A stretch of DNA of 51,171 nt, counting the filler, from Catajapyx aquilonaris (Eukaryota), in NCBI GenBank assembly GCA_000934665.2. It is 2 parts of 2 records of this genome, joined end to end, with 100 filler letters (N's around TTAATTAATTAA, not from the genome) between each part and the next. Parts side by side here need not be neighbours in the genome. Positions count along the whole stretch, not along the records: positions 1 to 25,536 come from JYFJ02005353.1; 1 more part is not named here. One strand, given 5' to 3'. The notes under the pieces were generated by a model. It saw only the letters and a program-made list of their open reading frames with translations, did not search any database and had not been told where the DNA came from. Below, piece by piece: positions 9,473-20,751 of this stretch; position 1 is the first letter of the stretch, and the number at the start of each line of letters is the position of its first letter. Position numbers and translations under genes: made by a program.

Positions 9473-12400
9473 ATGACGAGGAAACCGTCGTACGGATGTG
9501 TGGGTAATTATTGATCTGTACTTAGTGTTCCCAATTACATATTTATTATTCTTATTAAACAATGACCACACAATATCCACTTTTTCTTTTTCTTTTGTTG
9601 AGAATATTGAAGACCCCCTCTTTGAGATGCTAAAGTATGTTCGGACAGATCTTTGTAGGTGAGATGCACGCAAGTAATTTCCAGCTGTACGTCTTATTAA
9701 TTATCGTTACACTGCGGACTGGACGACCTTTGGTTGGTCAGCGTCTGGCCCGCTCCAGTGCGTCCAGCTGCTCGTTGAGAATGGCCTGGAGGTCAAGCTG
9801 GTTCAGGTGCGCCTGGATCTCCCGCTTCACTGGGACCTCCACCGCGTCCACAATCTGCTTCCTGAACACGTTCGGAAGGACGTTCATCACAAGCTCAATT
9901 GCGTAATCCAAGGTCCCCGCACCGTGAGATGTCACCTGTACAGATCCAGCAATTAGCATATGTTTTTTCCGTAAATTAAAAAGGCGTACCTGGAAGTTCC
10001 CGAGGGTGACCTGCAAGTCTTCAAGCACCGGCTTCTTGTCCAGATTAGCCGATTGCGACAGGATGATGAAGATGTTGAATGAGTCGAGAGCGAACTTCAA
10101 TCGGCCGGTTCTGGAGTAAAATGCAGTGCCGACGGTCCAATCGCAGCTTCCTCGTAGCCGTGACGTCCCGACGCTCACAGTCACATGTCCCGCATGCTCT
10201 TCGTACCCGACGGTCACATTCCCGGTACGATGTACCGTCGACAGGCCGTGCACAATCCCGTTATCTAGCCGAATCTGTCAGCAAAAATTGAGAGTGCAAT
10301 GTGCCGCTTGCGAATTGCGGAAACGTACCTTAATCCACGAGTCGCTCCGGTACGGCGGAAGCTTCAGCGGATCCAGACCCAGCTTCTTGATCTCCTCTCG
10401 GGCTATCGAAATGGCAAGATCAATGGGCGCGACTGAATCCGGAAAACGCTGGGGAAGTTCCCCAAGTTTCTGGTCCAGCTCGCCTTTGACCTGATCGTTC
10501 ACTTGTCCCAACACCATCGGCTTAACGCTATCGAATATGAAAGCGCCAACCGAGTTGACAATTCCTTGGAAGAAACGTCCGAGAAGGCCGAGGTTGTCGA
10601 ACGTTATCTGAATATCGGCGAACTTGATGTCCATGTCGATATCGCCTGATTGAAGCTTGCCGTCACGTCCGACTTTCAATCCGACGACACCATCGCCGTA
10701 CACATCGATCACAGTCACGTTGAAGTTTCCACTTGAACTAGTCAGCCAGCTTGACATCGAGTATTTCCCAAGTACCTGTAACCATCGACTTATACTTCCG
10801 CTTGTACTGTACAGACACTACTGACCTGTAATGCTTCGAGATGTATCCCAACTGATACTTGCAAAGCCGCCAAGTCCGCCCTCGCATGTTCAAGCCGAAA
10901 CCTGGACAGCCCATGCACTTTCGCACGTTTGAAGTCCACGGCCGTACCTGAGAATCGTTGGGTCATATCCGGTATGGGCATCGGATCCTCAACAGGCGCA
11001 CCGGGTATGCCAACCGGATCGTCCTGCTTGAAATGCTCGATCAGATCCTCAACCTGCTGGCGGATCTTCGGATCTAACGCTCGCTTGTGGCGTACAACCG
11101 GATCATACGAGACTGTACACACTGCGGTACCGGGTATCGGAAACTTGCATGTGACTCCATCTGAAATTAAACCGGATACAACCAGCCGATGTACGTTACA
11201 ACAAATAGTTGCACTTACTTTCCGGTACGACCAACGACGATACCGCACCGCACGTCACCAGCAACAACACACCAAGTCTCCCCTCCATTGCGTCCAAATG
11301 GCGGATCAAACGGCCAGCTCTCAATTGAGTGAAGCAGGATGCAAAATTAAGTTTGATTGTGAGGGGTTGTGAGGTCATCTCTGGCCGTCATCCAAGAGTG
11401 TCATGTTTGTTGTGTGATAAAAAGACAGGTCAAGGTCCGAGTCGTATTGAGCTGACAACCCAGATTTTTTTTCGCCTTGTTGAATCTAATTACATTTTAT
11501 TGCATTACAGATAATGGAAGTACAGTTGCGGAAATCGACGCCGCACGGCATCGAAAAGTTGCGTATGAGTACCTGTGCCATCTGGAGGAAGCCAAAGTGT
11601 ACGTTGCGTTCCGTGTTGGACAGTACCGTGTACTAATTAACGACTTAATTACAGATGGATCGAATCGTGTATTGACGAGGAGCTTCCGCCCACACCGGTA
11701 CTCGAAGAGAACCTTCGCAATGGCGTTTACCTGGCGAAGTTGGCCAGCTTCTTCGCTCCGAGCGTCGTATCCCGCGAGAAGATTTACGATGCGTATCAGG
11801 AAAAGTATGCGAGTCACGGACTGCAGTTTCGACATACTGAAAACATCAGCAGGTACCTGCAAGCCTTGCAGCATATCGGATTGCCAAAGGTGAGAGCTCG
11901 TTATGAAAACGATGTGGACGATTAACCCGGCGTCGTTTCAGATTTTTCATCCGGAGACGACGGACATTTACGAGCGGAAAAACATGCCTCGTGCGGTCTA
12001 CTCCGTACATGCACTTGGGTTGTACTTGTACCGACTCGGACGTGCTCCTGCTTTGCAAGATTTGTTGGGGAAAGCGACGTTCACGGCGGACGAGGTGGCG
12101 AAGATGGCAGCGGAACTGAAGCGTCGAGGCATGGGACTAATGCCGCAGTTTGGCCGCATCGGTGGGATGTTAGCTCGTGATCTTCCAAAGAACGAAGCTG
12201 AAGTTCATGCCGCCATAATCGCAATCAATGTCGCCATCCTGAAAGGCGAAGTCGAGCCGACTATAGCGGCTTTAATGGAATCGGCTGCCGGGTTAAAGAG
12301 TTTGGAGAAGGGATTGGGCGAGAGATACCAGCGAGAGTTGAGCGTGCGGAAGGAGGAAAAGCGGCAGGAAGCTGCGGAGAAGGTGCGTACGTAACTACCT

Positions 12401-15400: not shown

Positions 15401-17393
15401 TTTAAGTACTGAACGTTTCGTACCAACCGTTTCGTACTGAGCATTTTGTACCAAACGTTTTGTACCGAACTGTTTGTACTGAACATTTCACACCGACCAT
15501 TTCGTACCGAACTGTTTGTATTGAACATTTCGTACCGAACATTAAATACTGAAAGTTTAGTACGGAACATTTCATACTGAACTGTTTGTAATGAACATTT
15601 CGTACCCAACATTTTGTGCCGAACGTTAAATACTGAAAGGTTCGTACTGAACGTTTTGTACCGAACATTAAAATGCTGAAAGTTTCGTACTGAACATTTC
15701 GTACCGAATATCTTGAACCAAACGATTCTGTTGCAGGTTTCCGCAGTGTGCCGAGAAGGATATTTTGAAGGCGGTCGGAAACTTGGTGTACTACCGATTC
15801 CTGAACTCGGCTGTGGTTGCTCCGGATGCGTTCGATATCGTACCAGCTTCGGCCGACCGTCCACTTACGAACGACCAAAGGCGGAACTTAGGAAGCGTCG
15901 CTAAGATTCTACAATTTGCCTCGACCAAAAAAGGATTTGGTGACGAGTCGCCCCATCTCGTGTGCCTCAACTCCTTCATCGTCGAGTGTCACGAGCGATT
16001 CAAATCCTTCTTCCGACAGTGCTGCCAGGTCTGTTTGTCTCATTAATCGTCATAACGTTAGCTCAAATTTTGATGATTTCAGGTCGACCCACCGGAAGAT
16101 CGCTTTGGAATCGATCGGTACTCCGAAGCGACTCTCATATCAAAGCCTGTTGTGTACCTGACTGTCCAGGAAGTCGTAGATACCCATCAGCTGCTGGTGG
16201 ACAATCTGAAGGAGTTGGCGCCTGATCCAAACGATCCGCTGCATGAGCTTCTGAGCGATCTGGGGCTTGTGCCTGCGGTTGCGGAACTGGTCTCGGATGA
16301 CCCGACGAATGGCGATGCGGTCATGGGGAAGTCCGAAGTCTGCTTGACGCTTAATGACAAGTTCGGAGGAAGCATCGGGGTGGACGAAAGCGCTTCGGAG
16401 ATGGAAGAGCTGCTTGTTAGGTAAGTGTTCGTACTGCCAGCAGCGTATGAAGTTAACTTGTCATGTACCTACAGGACGAAAAGGATGCTGGTGTCGCTGC
16501 TTCCTTGCACTGACAACGCGTCGTTGCCGGAAGCCCTGGCTGCGGCTACGACTCAGCGGCAAGAGTCACTGTTCGTGTCCCTGCAGGAACGACGACTCGA
16601 GCGGGATCGGAGGGCACAAGCGGATCAAAGCATACTCCGCAGGGAAAACTCATTCCTGGAGCATAAGTGAGTCCGCACAGTACTCGTTTACCACACGGTT
16701 TTTTTGACGTGTCCGGCGCTAACATGTCCAATTGCAGGACCAGCCTGGCCGCCCTGAAGTCGCATGCCATGCACAACCTGCATGTGCTTGAAACTGTCGG
16801 ATTGGTGACACCATCGGATGGGTACCAATCGGTGCTGACCTCCCTGGCACGATCCATCACCGAGTCGGCGCGGCACAGGGAAACGAGGCGGTCCGAGCTG
16901 ATCCGACTCACCCGCACCTACTCGGACCTGGAAGCCAAGCGCCACTTTTACGAGGACCAGCGTCGCTCGTACGAACTGTACTTGCGGAAATGCCTCGACA
17001 GCATGTCAACGTCAGTTAAGGAGGAAGGGAAGTCGATTAAGTACACCGGCGCTAAGCTGCATGAGCGAGGCGTACTGTTAGGCATCGAAGGACTTCCGCA
17101 TGGACAGCTTCGGAACGTCCAGTTTGAGATCACTCCGACAGGTACGTGCACACATCCGATCAAACAATGCGATTGGTAACAACACTTTTTTTGAAGGTCG
17201 AAAAGGCGGATTGTTCGAGGTTCAGGCCAAGTTTCTCGGAGTGGCGATGGAGCGGGTTGAGTTGGATATTCAGGAGCTTCTTCGACTCCAGTTCGACGGT
17301 GTTGCCGTGATGGATATGTTCGGAAAGGCGAGGGTCAACGTCAACCTGATTCTCCATCTGCTGAACCGCAAGTTCTATGGGAAGGGCAAGTGA
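9473..17393 (+). CDS. IQGAP1: Ras GTPase-activating-like scaffold protein IQGAP (~1579 aa)
   Basis: Exons 9473-9503 (inferred), 11511-11598, 11655-11889, 11942-12382, 12434-12518, 12573-12667, 12722-12875, 12926-13230, 13287-13443, 13498-14033, 14090-14581, 14635-14910, 14968-15389, 15737-16028, 16083-16420, 16475-16666, 16738-17141, 17197-17393; all phases consistent. CH domain AYEYLCHLEEAK..LEENLRNGVYLAKL and PETTDIYERKNMPR; three IQ motifs; GRD YYRFLNSAVVAPDAF; C-terminus NVNLILHLLNRKFYGK. Confidence 0.95.
9738..11288 (-). CDS. Secreted JHBP/takeout-like plus group-7-allergen-like (tubular lipid-binding) protein, ~444 aa
   Basis: Exons 11288-11219, 11160-10826, 10775-10329, 10274-9990, 9935-9738; GT-AG, phases 1,0,0,0. 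Signal peptide MEGRLGVLLLVTCGAVSS. Arthropod-type motifs EHFKQDDPVGIPGAPVEDPMPIPDM, VHGLS..(x2) and DPLKLP. The family assignment is from memory. Confidence 0.8.
15405..15718. repeat. ~15-bp tandem repeat (TTTCGTACCGAACAT-like) in IQGAP intron 13
   Basis: About 20 degenerate copies of GTAC(C/T)GAAC. Confidence 0.9.
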
Positions 17394-17979
17394 AGACTTA
17401 ACGGGATACTTTTGACGCTAATTATTCTCTCTTTAAAATGTGTTGCGTTTTCTAAAAATGCGACTGCCTGATGTTCTTCCATGACTTAAAGCCAAATATG
17501 TATGACAGTACGAAACGTTTAAAAGATATTGTTGTGCTGCCTTTGTGACACTTGGTGTCTGATCTTGTAAGACTTTCCGTTGCTTTCCGTTAATTTTTTT
17601 TGATATTTTGGTAGCGTTAGACATCAACAGCCTTTCCGCATTTATGTTTTACGTAGGATTGTGTCACTGTTTGTAACACGTACTTTTGCTCGTAGCTTTC
17701 AAGGTTCGGTGTCGTAAAAAAAGTAACGATGCAATGGATGTATTTTTCATACTTTTTTTGGTGTATATTTTAATAACATGTTCAAAAAAATATGACAATA
17801 AACTCTACTGGATCTTTTGCTGGATACCAAATTATTTTTATTGGGCGTGAAACTGGTTAACAACGAACCATGCACATTTTTGAATATGGGCGCGGAAAAT
17901 TATTTTTGAATCAAAACCACCTTCGATGCAATTGAGCGAAGGACAGTACTGTCGATTTAGTAACAATTAGTGTACGCTG

Positions 17980-18335
17980 CTAATTATCTGGTGGATTCAT
18001 GCCGTCCGAACCTTCGTCAGCGATTTTGTCCGCACGAGTCGGCTTGGATGCGATTGACCTGGTGCAACGATCTGAAAATAATTGCGCAATTAGCGATTTT
18101 TTCCCCCCCATTTGTATATTAAAACGTATGGTTTCTCACCAGATCTTAGGTCGGGAACCAACACTGTTTGTGTCCATCGACATGGACAGTGGGTGCCCCT
18201 CCCGCGGTTTCTTTTCTTGAGTCCGTTTGGAACGTTGCCTTGGTTCACACTACTCAGGAGTGCAGCCTGCCTTGTTGCGAATGAGTTCGGCAGCTGGATC
18301 GGCTGAAGGGCTTCCTTGCTGAGGGAATTTCCCAT
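17980..18335 (-). CDS. Putative small N-myristoylated orphan protein A (MGNSLSKEA..., ~95 aa if spliced)
   Basis: ATG at 18335. Exon 18335-18140 (G|GTGAGA), 68-nt intron, TTTTCAG| exon 18071-17980 in frame to TAG. The unspliced ORF ends at 18090. N-terminus is paralogous to that at 18953. Confidence 0.5.
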
Positions 18336-18716
18336 CGTCTTATGTAACGTAAGAGTTGCAACTCCGAGAGCAACGAAGACAACAGTACCACCCAGTACCT
18401 TCGTGTCATCAAAAATGAACAAGCCGTTGAACTCCAGACATACCGTCCTAATTATTCCGTGAACAGGACAATTGACATTTTTCTCAAAAAGTCGTGCGTC
18501 TCATAACGACTCGTATTTCCGCATGTAATTATGCCGATGCTATTTGCGTCTGGAGGGGATCGTCTTTCGCAGGGCTTATCAGGGACAGGAAGCTCATGGA
18601 ATTTTATTGTCTGGCCAACGGGGTCAACAACTATGAAGTTTGCGTCATGTCGGATAATAATAATTAACAGATCATTTTTTTTATGGGTTTTATTTCAAGT
18701 AAGTGTTACAAACGAC

Positions 18717-18953
18717 TCAGAGCCTTTCCTCATATTTGAAGGTAGGGGCGGTAAGAAGCTTCTTTGTGTCGCGTGAATGTGCCTTGACGGACTTTGGAAC
18801 CGCGGCCATTTCCACCCTGTAAACCGTGCACTTCTTGAGTACGTTTCGGGATTTGGGTTGGTACCGTTGGCTCATGAAATGAGTGTTTCCGTCTGGTTTG
18901 GGTATAAGCTCCCGCGACTGCATGTTGGCTTCTTTGCTCAGGCAGTTTCCCAT
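18717..18953 (-). CDS. Putative small N-myristoylated orphan protein B (MGNCLSKEA..., 78 aa)
   Basis: Acceptor GTTACAG 8 nt upstream of the ATG, donor G|GTAAGT near 19120, and AATAAA about 23 nt after the stop. Confidence 0.55.
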   Translation of the reverse strand: MGNCLSKEANMQSRELIPKPDGNTHFMSQRYQPKSRNVLKKCTVYRVEMAAVPKSVKAHSRDTKKLLTAPTFKYEERL

Positions 18954-19803
18954 AGTCCGAGCTGTAACAAGCGGCTTGCTTTAGTGCGATGTATTATTTT
19001 CCGTTATTAGTAGCTTTTGAACCGTTGTAGGAGCTGAAATTAGCGGCTACAACCGTAGATTATAGGTGAAATAATAATTCTATGAACTCGGATTTCATAG
19101 AACCGCACAATACGTACTTACCCGTAACTTCCAAGATGGTTAACCGAATAAGCAGTGTCGAGTTTAATTGAAGCGTCCAGCTAACGTCTTCCCAACGGCC
19201 ACATCCTCTCGAGCACACTCTTGCGAACAAAATAAGCCCCTTCCTGACTGCAGCTGTGTGTGTCGGGTAGACGGATCGTCTTTCTCTGAACATGCTGACT
19301 AGTTAGGAGTAGTTCGAGGCTTATCGGCTGGAAAAGGAATGTCATTGTGATCTTGGGGGAATTATAATTATCAAAGAAATTGAAGGCTGAATGGTATAAT
19401 TTTTTTTCTATTAAACATCGTACATTTGCGGTGAGAGCTTTGTTGCATATTAATATTGAATTTTAGAAATTACGGGAATGAGCCCGGGTTCAGCCCAGTG
19501 TCCAGGCAACGGTAAATTGTCATACAGGATTGTAATAAGTAAATAAATGTGCCACCTGCCCATCAAGCCATTCCGAGGAATTATTTCCTTTTTGAGTTCC
19601 TCTGTGATCCAGATAAACAAGATCTGAGTCTGTGAATTCACGTCGCCAGTGGTGCGTCTCGAAGTGTTCGTACAGAGGTTCAGGTACAGTGCACTGGAAT
19701 GCAGGAAGCTCACAACCACTTATTCACTCACATCCTCTTTACTTCCAGGGTGGCTGCAGGCAGGACGTACGGATATTTTCTGGAGCTCATCAAGTGAGAA
19801 ATA

Positions 19804-20751
19804 ATGTCTAATATCCAGCATATGGTGTCGACTCAACAAACTCAACCATATTGCTTCAAGTGGACTATAGAAAAATATGAAGCAATAGTAGCAGAGAACA
19901 AATATATATCGTCCCAAGAATTTACAACTACTGGAGGACCAGAACCAAGAGAGTGGGAGATTGTGCTCTGGCCTAATGGTGATCGGAAGGGAAATCGCGG
20001 CCATGTCTCCCTTTACCTCCAGTACTTTCGAGATGAAGATAGCACTGATAGGGTCACAGCAACACTAAAGTTCACTATAAAGAGTGCCACCAACCAAGAT
20101 TATTCGTCACCTCAATTTCTTAGGGTATTTGGCAAGAAAATCACCTCCCTATCCTGGGGCATTGGTCAATTTATTTCTGTCAAAGAGTTAGCAAAGAGGG
20201 CAGCCGACCTCCTTCCTAATGGTACCCTGACTGTGGTTTGCGAGGGAGAGGTTTTTTTGGAGCGAAAGTATGAGGAAGTGGAAGTGAGTGCTGCGGTTAA
20301 TGGCCCCGGATTATCTGAAGATGTGCGGAAGACACTGACGTCAGATTTAACTATGGATGTAACATTGGTGGTAAATGGATCAGCGTTTCCAGTGCACAAG
20401 TATTTGCTTTGTGCTCGAAGCCCAGTGTTTGCAGCCATGTTTGAGCACGAGACTGAGGAAAAAATGACAGGCAAGGTCATTATCAAGGACTTCAGTCCTG
20501 AAGTGGTTCGGGGCCTCGTACACTTCATGTACTCTGATCAGACTCCAGAAGACATGCAGGTTGAAGTGGCAATGGAGCTCCTGGCAGCTGCGGATAAGTA
20601 CCAGATCCTTCGTCTGAAGTCCTTGTGTGAGCTTCACCTTACAAAATGTTTGACTCTGGAAACTGTATTCGGCGTTCTGGATTTGGCCATGATGCATAAC
20701 TCGTCAAGACTGAAGGAAGCATGTGTGCAGTTTGTCAAGTACAACATGTGA
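19804..20751 (+). CDS. MATH-BTB (speckle-type POZ protein-like), intronless CDS
   Basis: MATH: FKWTIEKY, WEIVLWPNGD, HVSLYL, SWGIGQFI. BTB: DVTLVV, FPVHKYLLCARSPVFAAMFEH, LLAAADKYQILRLKSLCE. Divergent from canonical SPOP/roadkill. Confidence 0.9.
   Translation: MSNIQHMVSTQQTQPYCFKWTIEKYEAIVAENKYISSQEFTTTGGPEPREWEIVLWPNGDRKGNRGHVSLYLQYFRDEDSTDRVTATLKFTIKSATNQDYSSPQFLRVFGKKITSLSWGIGQFISVKELAKRAADLLPNGTLTVVCEGEVFLERKYEEVEVSAAVNGPGLSEDVRKTLTSDLTMDVTLVVNGSAFPVHKYLLCARSPVFAAMFEHETEEKMTGKVIIKDFSPEVVRGLVHFMYSDQTPEDMQVEVAMELLAAADKYQILRLKSLCELHLTKCLTLETVFGVLDLAMMHNSSRLKEACVQFVKYNM

Follow-up and report, generated by a model that had tools for sequence, protein, structure and literature searches.

The stretch of DNA considered here, a window of 51,171 nucleotides (nt) from the genome of Catajapyx aquilonaris (GenBank assembly GCA_000934665.2), carries a candidate pair of very small genes, hereafter copies A and B. 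The pair occupies a gap of 2.4 kb, flanked on one side by the 3' end of an IQGAP-like gene and on the other by that of a MATH-BTB (SPOP-like) gene, at its 5' end. Both flanking genes lie on the + strand; the former matches RasGAP (8e-30) and RasGAP_C (7e-28) and has the stop codon of its final exon at 17391-17393, and the latter begins with an ATG at 19805. Copies A and B are read from the minus strand, and each contains an open reading frame (ORF) whose first nine codons form a leader:

18335..18090, minus strand: ORF A, from the ATG at 18335 to the end of the stop codon at 18090, 81 amino acids (aa) when unspliced, beginning MGNSLSKEA
18717..18953, minus strand: ORF B, 78 aa and stop in one coding exon, running from MGNCLSKEA to KYEERL

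An earlier note on this DNA had described two minus-strand ORFs about 620 bp apart that share a myristoylation-type leader. The ATGs indeed fall at 18335 and 18953, with 618 nt between them.

The leader is the best-kept part of the pair, as that note had also maintained. The first 27 nt of A and B differ at four places, of which AAT/AAC, CTC/CTG and AAG/AAA are synonymous, while TCC/TGC replaces Ser by Cys. An identity of 23/27 nt has a chance of 2e-5 at a background identity of 0.45, and contrasts with the adjoining codons 10-30, where only 22/63 nt (~35%) are identical and divergence is near saturation. A degenerate pattern built on the 27-nt leader matches only these two sites in the window and has no match in any of 100 dinucleotide shuffles. 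Furthermore, synonymous changes make up three of the four leader differences, compared with 16 of the 81 possible single changes (P=0.026), which bears out the note's remark on the synonymous nature of most of them.

Both frames begin with ATG GGA and thus encode Met1-Gly2. Passages of a study of the G-alpha-o N-terminus (Nat Commun 2022, PMC9018777) quote the recognition motif of N-myristoyltransferase (NMT), there attributed to Castrec et al. 2018, as M-G-[^DEFRWY]-X-[^DEKR]-[ACGST]-[KR]. MGNSLSK and MGNCLSK match the motif, in the form in which those passages quote it, at 7/7 positions; the earlier note had likewise pointed to an NMT consensus. The sole replacement between the leaders, S4/C4, stands at the single position that the quoted motif (PMC9018777) leaves free. 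Both leaders also match a looser, PROSITE-type pattern. A Cys soon after Gly2 is found in copy B (Cys4) and not in copy A, which has Ser4 and its first Cys at residue 50.

Read on the + strand, the leader of copy A contains, at 18323-18333, the palindrome GGGAATTTCCC, which resembles an NF-kB/Rel (kB-like) site and fits the consensus of such sites. At the equivalent place copy B reads GGCAGTTTCCC on the + strand, and the kB-like site is therefore not common to the two copies.

The likeness between A and B extends well beyond the leader. It is concentrated in two islands within the ORFs and in a 12-mer upstream of them:

18927..18957, minus strand: copy B island 1, start context GAC-N-ATGG and codons 1-9
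18309..18339, minus strand: copy A island 1, start context and codons 1-9
18832..18862, minus strand: copy B island 2, codons 31-41, YQPKSRNVLKK
18214..18244, minus strand: copy A island 2, codons 31-41, NQGNVPNGLKK, followed by the basic run RNRGRG
19273..19284, minus strand: copy B upstream 12-mer GAAAGACGATCC, 331 nt ahead of the ATG
18557..18568, minus strand: copy A upstream 12-mer GAAAGACGATCC, 233 nt ahead of the ATG

Island 1 is identical at 26/31 nt (84%) and island 2 at 23/31 nt (74%), each at a spacing of 618, and both versions of island 2 encode N-x-L-K-K. The offset between the two islands is the same in A and B, so the ORF shows no net indel there even though the DNA between the islands is almost saturated, while that of the upstream 12-mer differs by 98 nt. 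When the window is compared with itself at the 618-nt offset, identity in 30-nt segments stays at 0.5-0.7 over about 18195-18344, with peaks of 0.63-0.70, and falls to the random level outside; over other offsets the background averages 0.255, with 0.533 as its 99.9th percentile and 0.667 as its maximum. A local alignment of the DNA of codons 10-41 reaches z=4.8, a score attained by 0/300 shuffles, and the comparison of A and B loses significance 3' of codon 47 (76/300 shuffles). The 12-mer, which in copy B possibly lies near the transcript start, has 2 matches in the whole window, a count reached in 1/100 shuffles, and the local alignment around it is equalled by 5/300 shuffles.

ORF A and ORF B are true paralogues that arose by an old tandem duplication. 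The earlier note had seen no similarity in the DNA downstream of the leaders, a statement that must be revised, since the copies are alike in register, at the offset of 618, to about codon 41-47. Its description of the pair as a family is not supported beyond the two paralogues: the window has only these two copies, and the searches found no relative. A separate idea, in which the leaders would serve a single gene as alternative first coding exons, was rejected: copy B lacks a usable donor ahead of its stop, and on the minus strand the next gene is reached only past the entire IQGAP-like gene.

Signals for splicing, start of translation and polyadenylation can be read in the sequence around both copies, where the note had placed donors, acceptors close to the ATG and AATAAA, and they stand in the correct order:

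18962..19121, minus strand: copy B putative intron in the 5' untranslated region (5' UTR), 160 nt, with donor GTAAGT at 19121-19116 and acceptor TTGTTACAG ending at 18962
18689..18694, minus strand: copy B AATAAA, 22 nt past the TGA stop
18339..18443, minus strand: copy A putative 5'-UTR intron, 105 nt, with donor GTATGT at 18443-18438
18140..18335, minus strand: copy A coding exon 1, 65 codons and 1 base, MGNSLSKEA...DLRS
18072..18139, minus strand: copy A putative coding intron, 68 nt, phase 1, with GTGAGA at 18139-18134, a branch-like CTAAT and TTTTCAG
17980..18071, minus strand: copy A coding exon 2, 30 codons and TAG at 17982-17980, in the frame of an ORF at 17980..18111
17837..17842, minus strand: copy A AATAAA, 137 nt past the TAG stop

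The acceptor AG of copy B (18963-18962) precedes the ATG by 8 nt, and both copies retain an A at -3 and a G at +4 around the start codon. Splicing of copy A would yield a product of 95 aa, the putative 68-nt intron leaving the frame open for 30 more codons. This intron resembles in size the final intron of the IQGAP-like gene, which measures 55 nt and ends in an AAG acceptor; short introns and AAG acceptors therefore do occur locally. Short upstream ORFs, 6-8 codons long, occur in the putative leader exons: three in that of copy A (18444-18556) and one in that of copy B (19122-19270).

The putative transcript of copy B is oriented head to head with the MATH-BTB gene across 19290-19805, and a single bidirectional promoter, a few hundred bases long, may therefore serve both. 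On the + strand, the MATH-BTB gene shows a GTGAGA donor near 19431 and an acceptor-like CTTCCAG near 19748. At the other end of the gap, copy A (AATAAA on the minus strand, 17842-17837) and the IQGAP-like gene (AATAAA on the + strand, near 17797-17802) are convergent; at their 3' ends they would either meet or share a few tens of bases.

The coding character of the ORFs was assessed with a log-odds score of codon usage trained on 3273 codons from the evident exons of the window. Real exon pieces of 78 codons score 0.229 on average (sd, or standard deviation, 0.087; n=37; lowest 0.067), while other ATG-initiated ORFs of 60-120 codons have a mean of -0.017 (sd 0.096; n=58). With a score of 0.197, ORF B ranks third of 58 comparable ORFs and is the best of its six frames; the two ORFs above it are, to judge by position, apparent exons of the Rad4/XPC-like gene and the IQGAP-like gene. 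An open frame of this length after the leader of copy B is reached in 4.2% of 3000 local shuffles, which makes it mildly unusual. The predicted products are basic, as the earlier note had suggested, with an isoelectric point (pI) of 9.95 for B and 10.7-11.4 for A. Their basic runs, KKRNRGRG at residues 40-47 of A and KSRNVLKK at residues 34-41 of B, lie at least ~30 residues from the putative anchor, and neither protein has a hydrophobic segment.

Taken together, these features are best read as a pair of microproteins, lipid-anchored, basic and disordered, that is restricted to one lineage and in which both copies would be working genes, a reading to which we give an even chance of being right. 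The old copies keep little except an acylation start signal, and for this reason the pair probably represents species-restricted, small, membrane-tethered proteins. Standard annotation would miss such a pair, given the shortness of the genes and their lack of homologues. We infer from the sequence that A and B may be transcribed, spliced and translated, and that their products may be acylated and localised; membrane anchoring is predicted from the motif only.

The proposed history and mechanism are as follows. On the minus strand, a small gene restricted to this lineage would have undergone an old local tandem duplication, each copy having a non-coding first exon, a short intron that ends just ahead of the ATG, and coding sequence in one exon for the 78 aa of copy B and in two exons for the 95 aa of copy A. 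In both products the initiator Met would be removed and Gly2 would then be N-myristoylated co-translationally, a step proposed because MGN(S/C)LSK matches the NMT motif throughout. In copy B, Cys4 would next be S-palmitoylated, and dual acylation would give stable attachment to the plasma membrane. Copy A would be myristoylated only, because it carries Ser4, and its binding to membranes would be weak or reversible; a basic patch starting at the conserved LKK may assist it (in A, KKRNRGRG; the run in B is KSRNVLKK). The rest of both proteins, basic and devoid of a predicted fold, would be subject to near-neutral drift.

A number of results weigh against two working protein genes, and many of them are what would be seen if the duplicated segment were non-coding, that is, a long non-coding RNA or part of the region next to the MATH-BTB promoter or of its divergent transcript, its islands being cis-regulatory or RNA elements and its open frames and MGN starts accidental. 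Outside the 27-nt leader there is no bias by codon position, the identity in codons 10-47 being 0.42, 0.45 and 0.47 at the three positions without an excess of change at the third, and in island 2 only 1/10 changes is synonymous. Nor is similarity at the protein level detected past the leader, where the observed value is matched or exceeded by 242/2000 shuffles in local comparison and by 508/5000 shuffles in register. Copy A has the codon usage of non-coding DNA: its score of -0.03 (0.02 unspliced) lies in the middle of the non-coding range and below the lowest exon piece. The lengths of the frames are mildly unusual at most, since that of A up to its donor is reached in 17% of shuffles and the open stretch past codon 47 in 19% (B) and 54% (A), and several other frames over copy B are also poor in stops. 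A myristoylation-type start is in itself no evidence, because the looser PROSITE-type pattern is matched by 16/1427 ATG starts in the window (1.1%). The single-sequence AlphaFold model of B (predicted local distance difference test score, pLDDT, 57.8; predicted template modelling score, pTM, 0.12; no secondary structure) suits a disordered protein and a non-protein equally well. Protein searches return no homologue: a word-index search of 5.8 billion clusters gave no match for A or for B at near lengths and, for B at longer lengths, 9 candidates of which none has E <=10; Atlas gave 0.78 for B and no usable match for A; Pfam at E up to 10 offered no family for the pair, and PDB at E up to 1 no chain. 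A regulatory role would also fit the start of copy B, some 100-400 nt from the likely start region of the MATH-BTB gene and head to head with it, as well as the kB-like palindrome in the leader of A. This site, however, is perfect in A only, and the conserved block reaches 16 nt past it. Island 1, moreover, runs in both copies from the start context exactly to codon 9 of an open frame, and three of its four changes are synonymous, with the one replacement at the free position of the NMT motif. The codon usage of B lies in the coding range, AATAAA follows the stop of B after 22 nt, and the spacing between the islands of the ORF has been kept exactly while that of the upstream element moved by 98 nt. 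No Rfam family matched over 17400-19800 at E up to 1. A non-coding segment is, in our judgement, a less likely but credible explanation.

Several of the same observations would be accommodated if only copy B were functional and copy A were a partial duplicate, comprising the promoter block, the leader and the first ~47 codons, that is decaying or never worked and that was possibly carried by a mobile element. Coding-like codon usage is seen in B and not in A, homology is confined to the 5' part of the unit, and copy A combines the three short upstream ORFs of its putative leader exon with a weak AAG acceptor (18340-18339) only 3 nt ahead of the ATG, both features that also count against a working copy A in the favoured reading. 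In addition, the 1045-bp unit of copy A is bracketed in its entirety by a 17-nt inverted pair, GTTTGTAACAC(G/T)TACTT, at 17669-17685 (+) and 18697-18713 (-), which has 2 matches in the window, a number reached in 0/100 shuffles. The two arms may mark the termini of a mobile element or represent a motif common to the two 3' UTRs: one lies in the 3' UTR of the IQGAP-like gene and the other in that of copy B, between stop and AATAAA, so that both mRNAs (IQGAP-like and putative copy B) would carry the 17-mer. No clear target-site duplication is seen beside the pair, however, and free drift of copy A would predict a leader as diverged as the adjoining DNA, whereas 23/27 nt have been kept against ~35% there, from which it follows that the start of A is also constrained. 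Copy A retains, besides, its -3 A and +4 G, an open frame, a frame-preserving 68-nt intron and its AATAAA, and we consider it improbable that B alone is a gene. Hardly credible, finally, is that the islands belong to the + strand, for instance as duplicated alternative first exons of the MATH-BTB gene spliced to the acceptor near 19748. A GTAAGA does occur on the + strand ~10 nt after island 1 of copy A, and the acceptor-like CTTCCAG at ~19742-19748 does lie ahead of the MATH-BTB ATG; the equivalent site after copy B, however, is a poor GTAACA, and the codon-like pattern of changes and the minus-strand AATAAA after both stops would be left unexplained.

The orphan status of the pair was pursued beyond these searches. 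With B as the query, a full HMMER scan covering 1.84 billion representatives gave 2 matches, at E 7e-5 and 3e-4, to P0001 (1573 aa) and P0002 (265 aa). Both were rejected as relatives, being internally repetitive proteins, with repeat units of roughly 50-90 residues, in which single stretches of no more than 25 bits are summed. They illustrate how repeat proteins yield false matches for short queries. In metagenome contigs the degenerate leader pattern had 0 matches. A query with the C-terminus of the IQGAP-like protein retrieved 9 metagenome loci of 44-74% identity; these contain no ORF of at least 35 aa with an MG-type start and no MATH-BTB neighbour, and a tblastn comparison of A and B with them gave no match (best E 0.35, outside the loci). 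The nine loci are too distant to inform on synteny. Across the protein searches and the metagenome contigs, no homologue was found outside the lineage, and the predicted pair is an orphan in that sense. Membership of the G-alpha subunits or the Src-family kinases is contradicted by the lack of homology in the body of the predicted proteins in Pfam, PDB and HMMER. In the searched literature, neither the leader heptamers nor the phrase 'myristoylated microprotein' was found, and the word N-myristoylated is absent among the matches listed for small ORFs (smORFs) and Drosophila.

If the favoured reading of two lipid-anchored microproteins is right, the pair would join the broad class of small N-myristoylated proteins as a new member restricted to its lineage. 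In function, its closest parallels are the acylated localisation codes at the N-terminus of G-alpha and Src-type proteins, together with small, disordered proteins that carry a myristate. In BASP1/CAP-23, MARCKS and the SH4 region of Src, a myristate and basic residues combine in membrane binding. The pair has in common with these proteins an MG start with Ser6 and Lys7, and it likewise shows a net basic charge (pI ~10-11), basic runs that may act as a patch, and no predicted fold. There is, however, no detectable homology, the pair is much shorter than MARCKS or BASP1, and its putative patch lies ~30-45 residues from the anchor, whereas in the known proteins it adjoins the anchor. HASPB and SMP-1 of trypanosomatids are small acylated proteins that have as their functional core a myristoyl (plus palmitoyl) signal at the N-terminus. 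Like the predicted pair, they are short and lineage-restricted, with the acyl signal central, but they belong to unrelated organisms and showed no sequence relation in any search made.

A published precedent for the predicted effect of the S4/C4 difference comes from work on G-alpha-o, where, as described in passages of that study (PMC9018777), the first seven residues of a peripheral membrane protein can determine its destination. An engineered 7-residue leader, MGNC-Nt7, was reported there to confer on green fluorescent protein (GFP) a palmitate incorporation like that of the wild-type leader and, in N2a, HeLa and Drosophila S2 cells, to direct it for the most part to the plasma membrane, while the Cys-less MGN variant C3N was mostly cytosolic and bound membranes weakly (PMC9018777). 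Copy B is identical to MGNC-Nt7 in its first four residues, and copy A shares with C3N an MGN start without a nearby Cys, as far as the variants are described in those passages. The comparison has its limits: the G-alpha-o variants in the same passages were engineered and sit on GFP or on a G protein of 40 kDa, whereas the present leaders would belong to natural, predicted proteins of 78-95 residues without a predicted fold. Past the leader no sequence relation to G-alpha exists, and the pair has a Lys7 that the G-alpha leaders given there lack.

A bolder version of the proposal brings these elements together. A young, lineage-specific gene may have been born beside a bidirectional MATH-BTB promoter and then duplicated, with selection acting almost only on a nine-residue acylation code, and the copies may have split into an MGNC form (myristoyl plus palmitoyl, at the plasma membrane) and an MGNS form (myristoyl only, reversible). 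In this full form the scenario, which comes from our analysis of the locus, seems to us doubtful. Were it true, the pair would offer a counterpart in nature to the engineered variants of the G-alpha-o leader, with disordered tails evolving freely at two membrane addresses. More generally, a real pair would be a clean natural example of microproteins conserved in nothing but their lipid-anchor code, with one Ser/Cys switch between paralogues predicted to alter the membrane address, and would bear on how new small genes gain function, with localisation first and the body later. As an orphan pair, it is at present a lead and not a result.

Some further features of the surroundings may be recorded. 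The sole tandem-repeat array is one of 19 nt at 17573-17591. Elsewhere in the window lie Kelch-BACK, Rad4/XPC and Grp7-allergen/JHBP-like genes, a set of families that points to an arthropod. The last of these, at 9738-11254 on the minus strand, matches Grp7-allergen at 1.3e-11, and its JHBP-like match (8e-5) is under the Pfam cut-off; Grp7-allergen and JHBP are lipid-binding families typical of arthropods.

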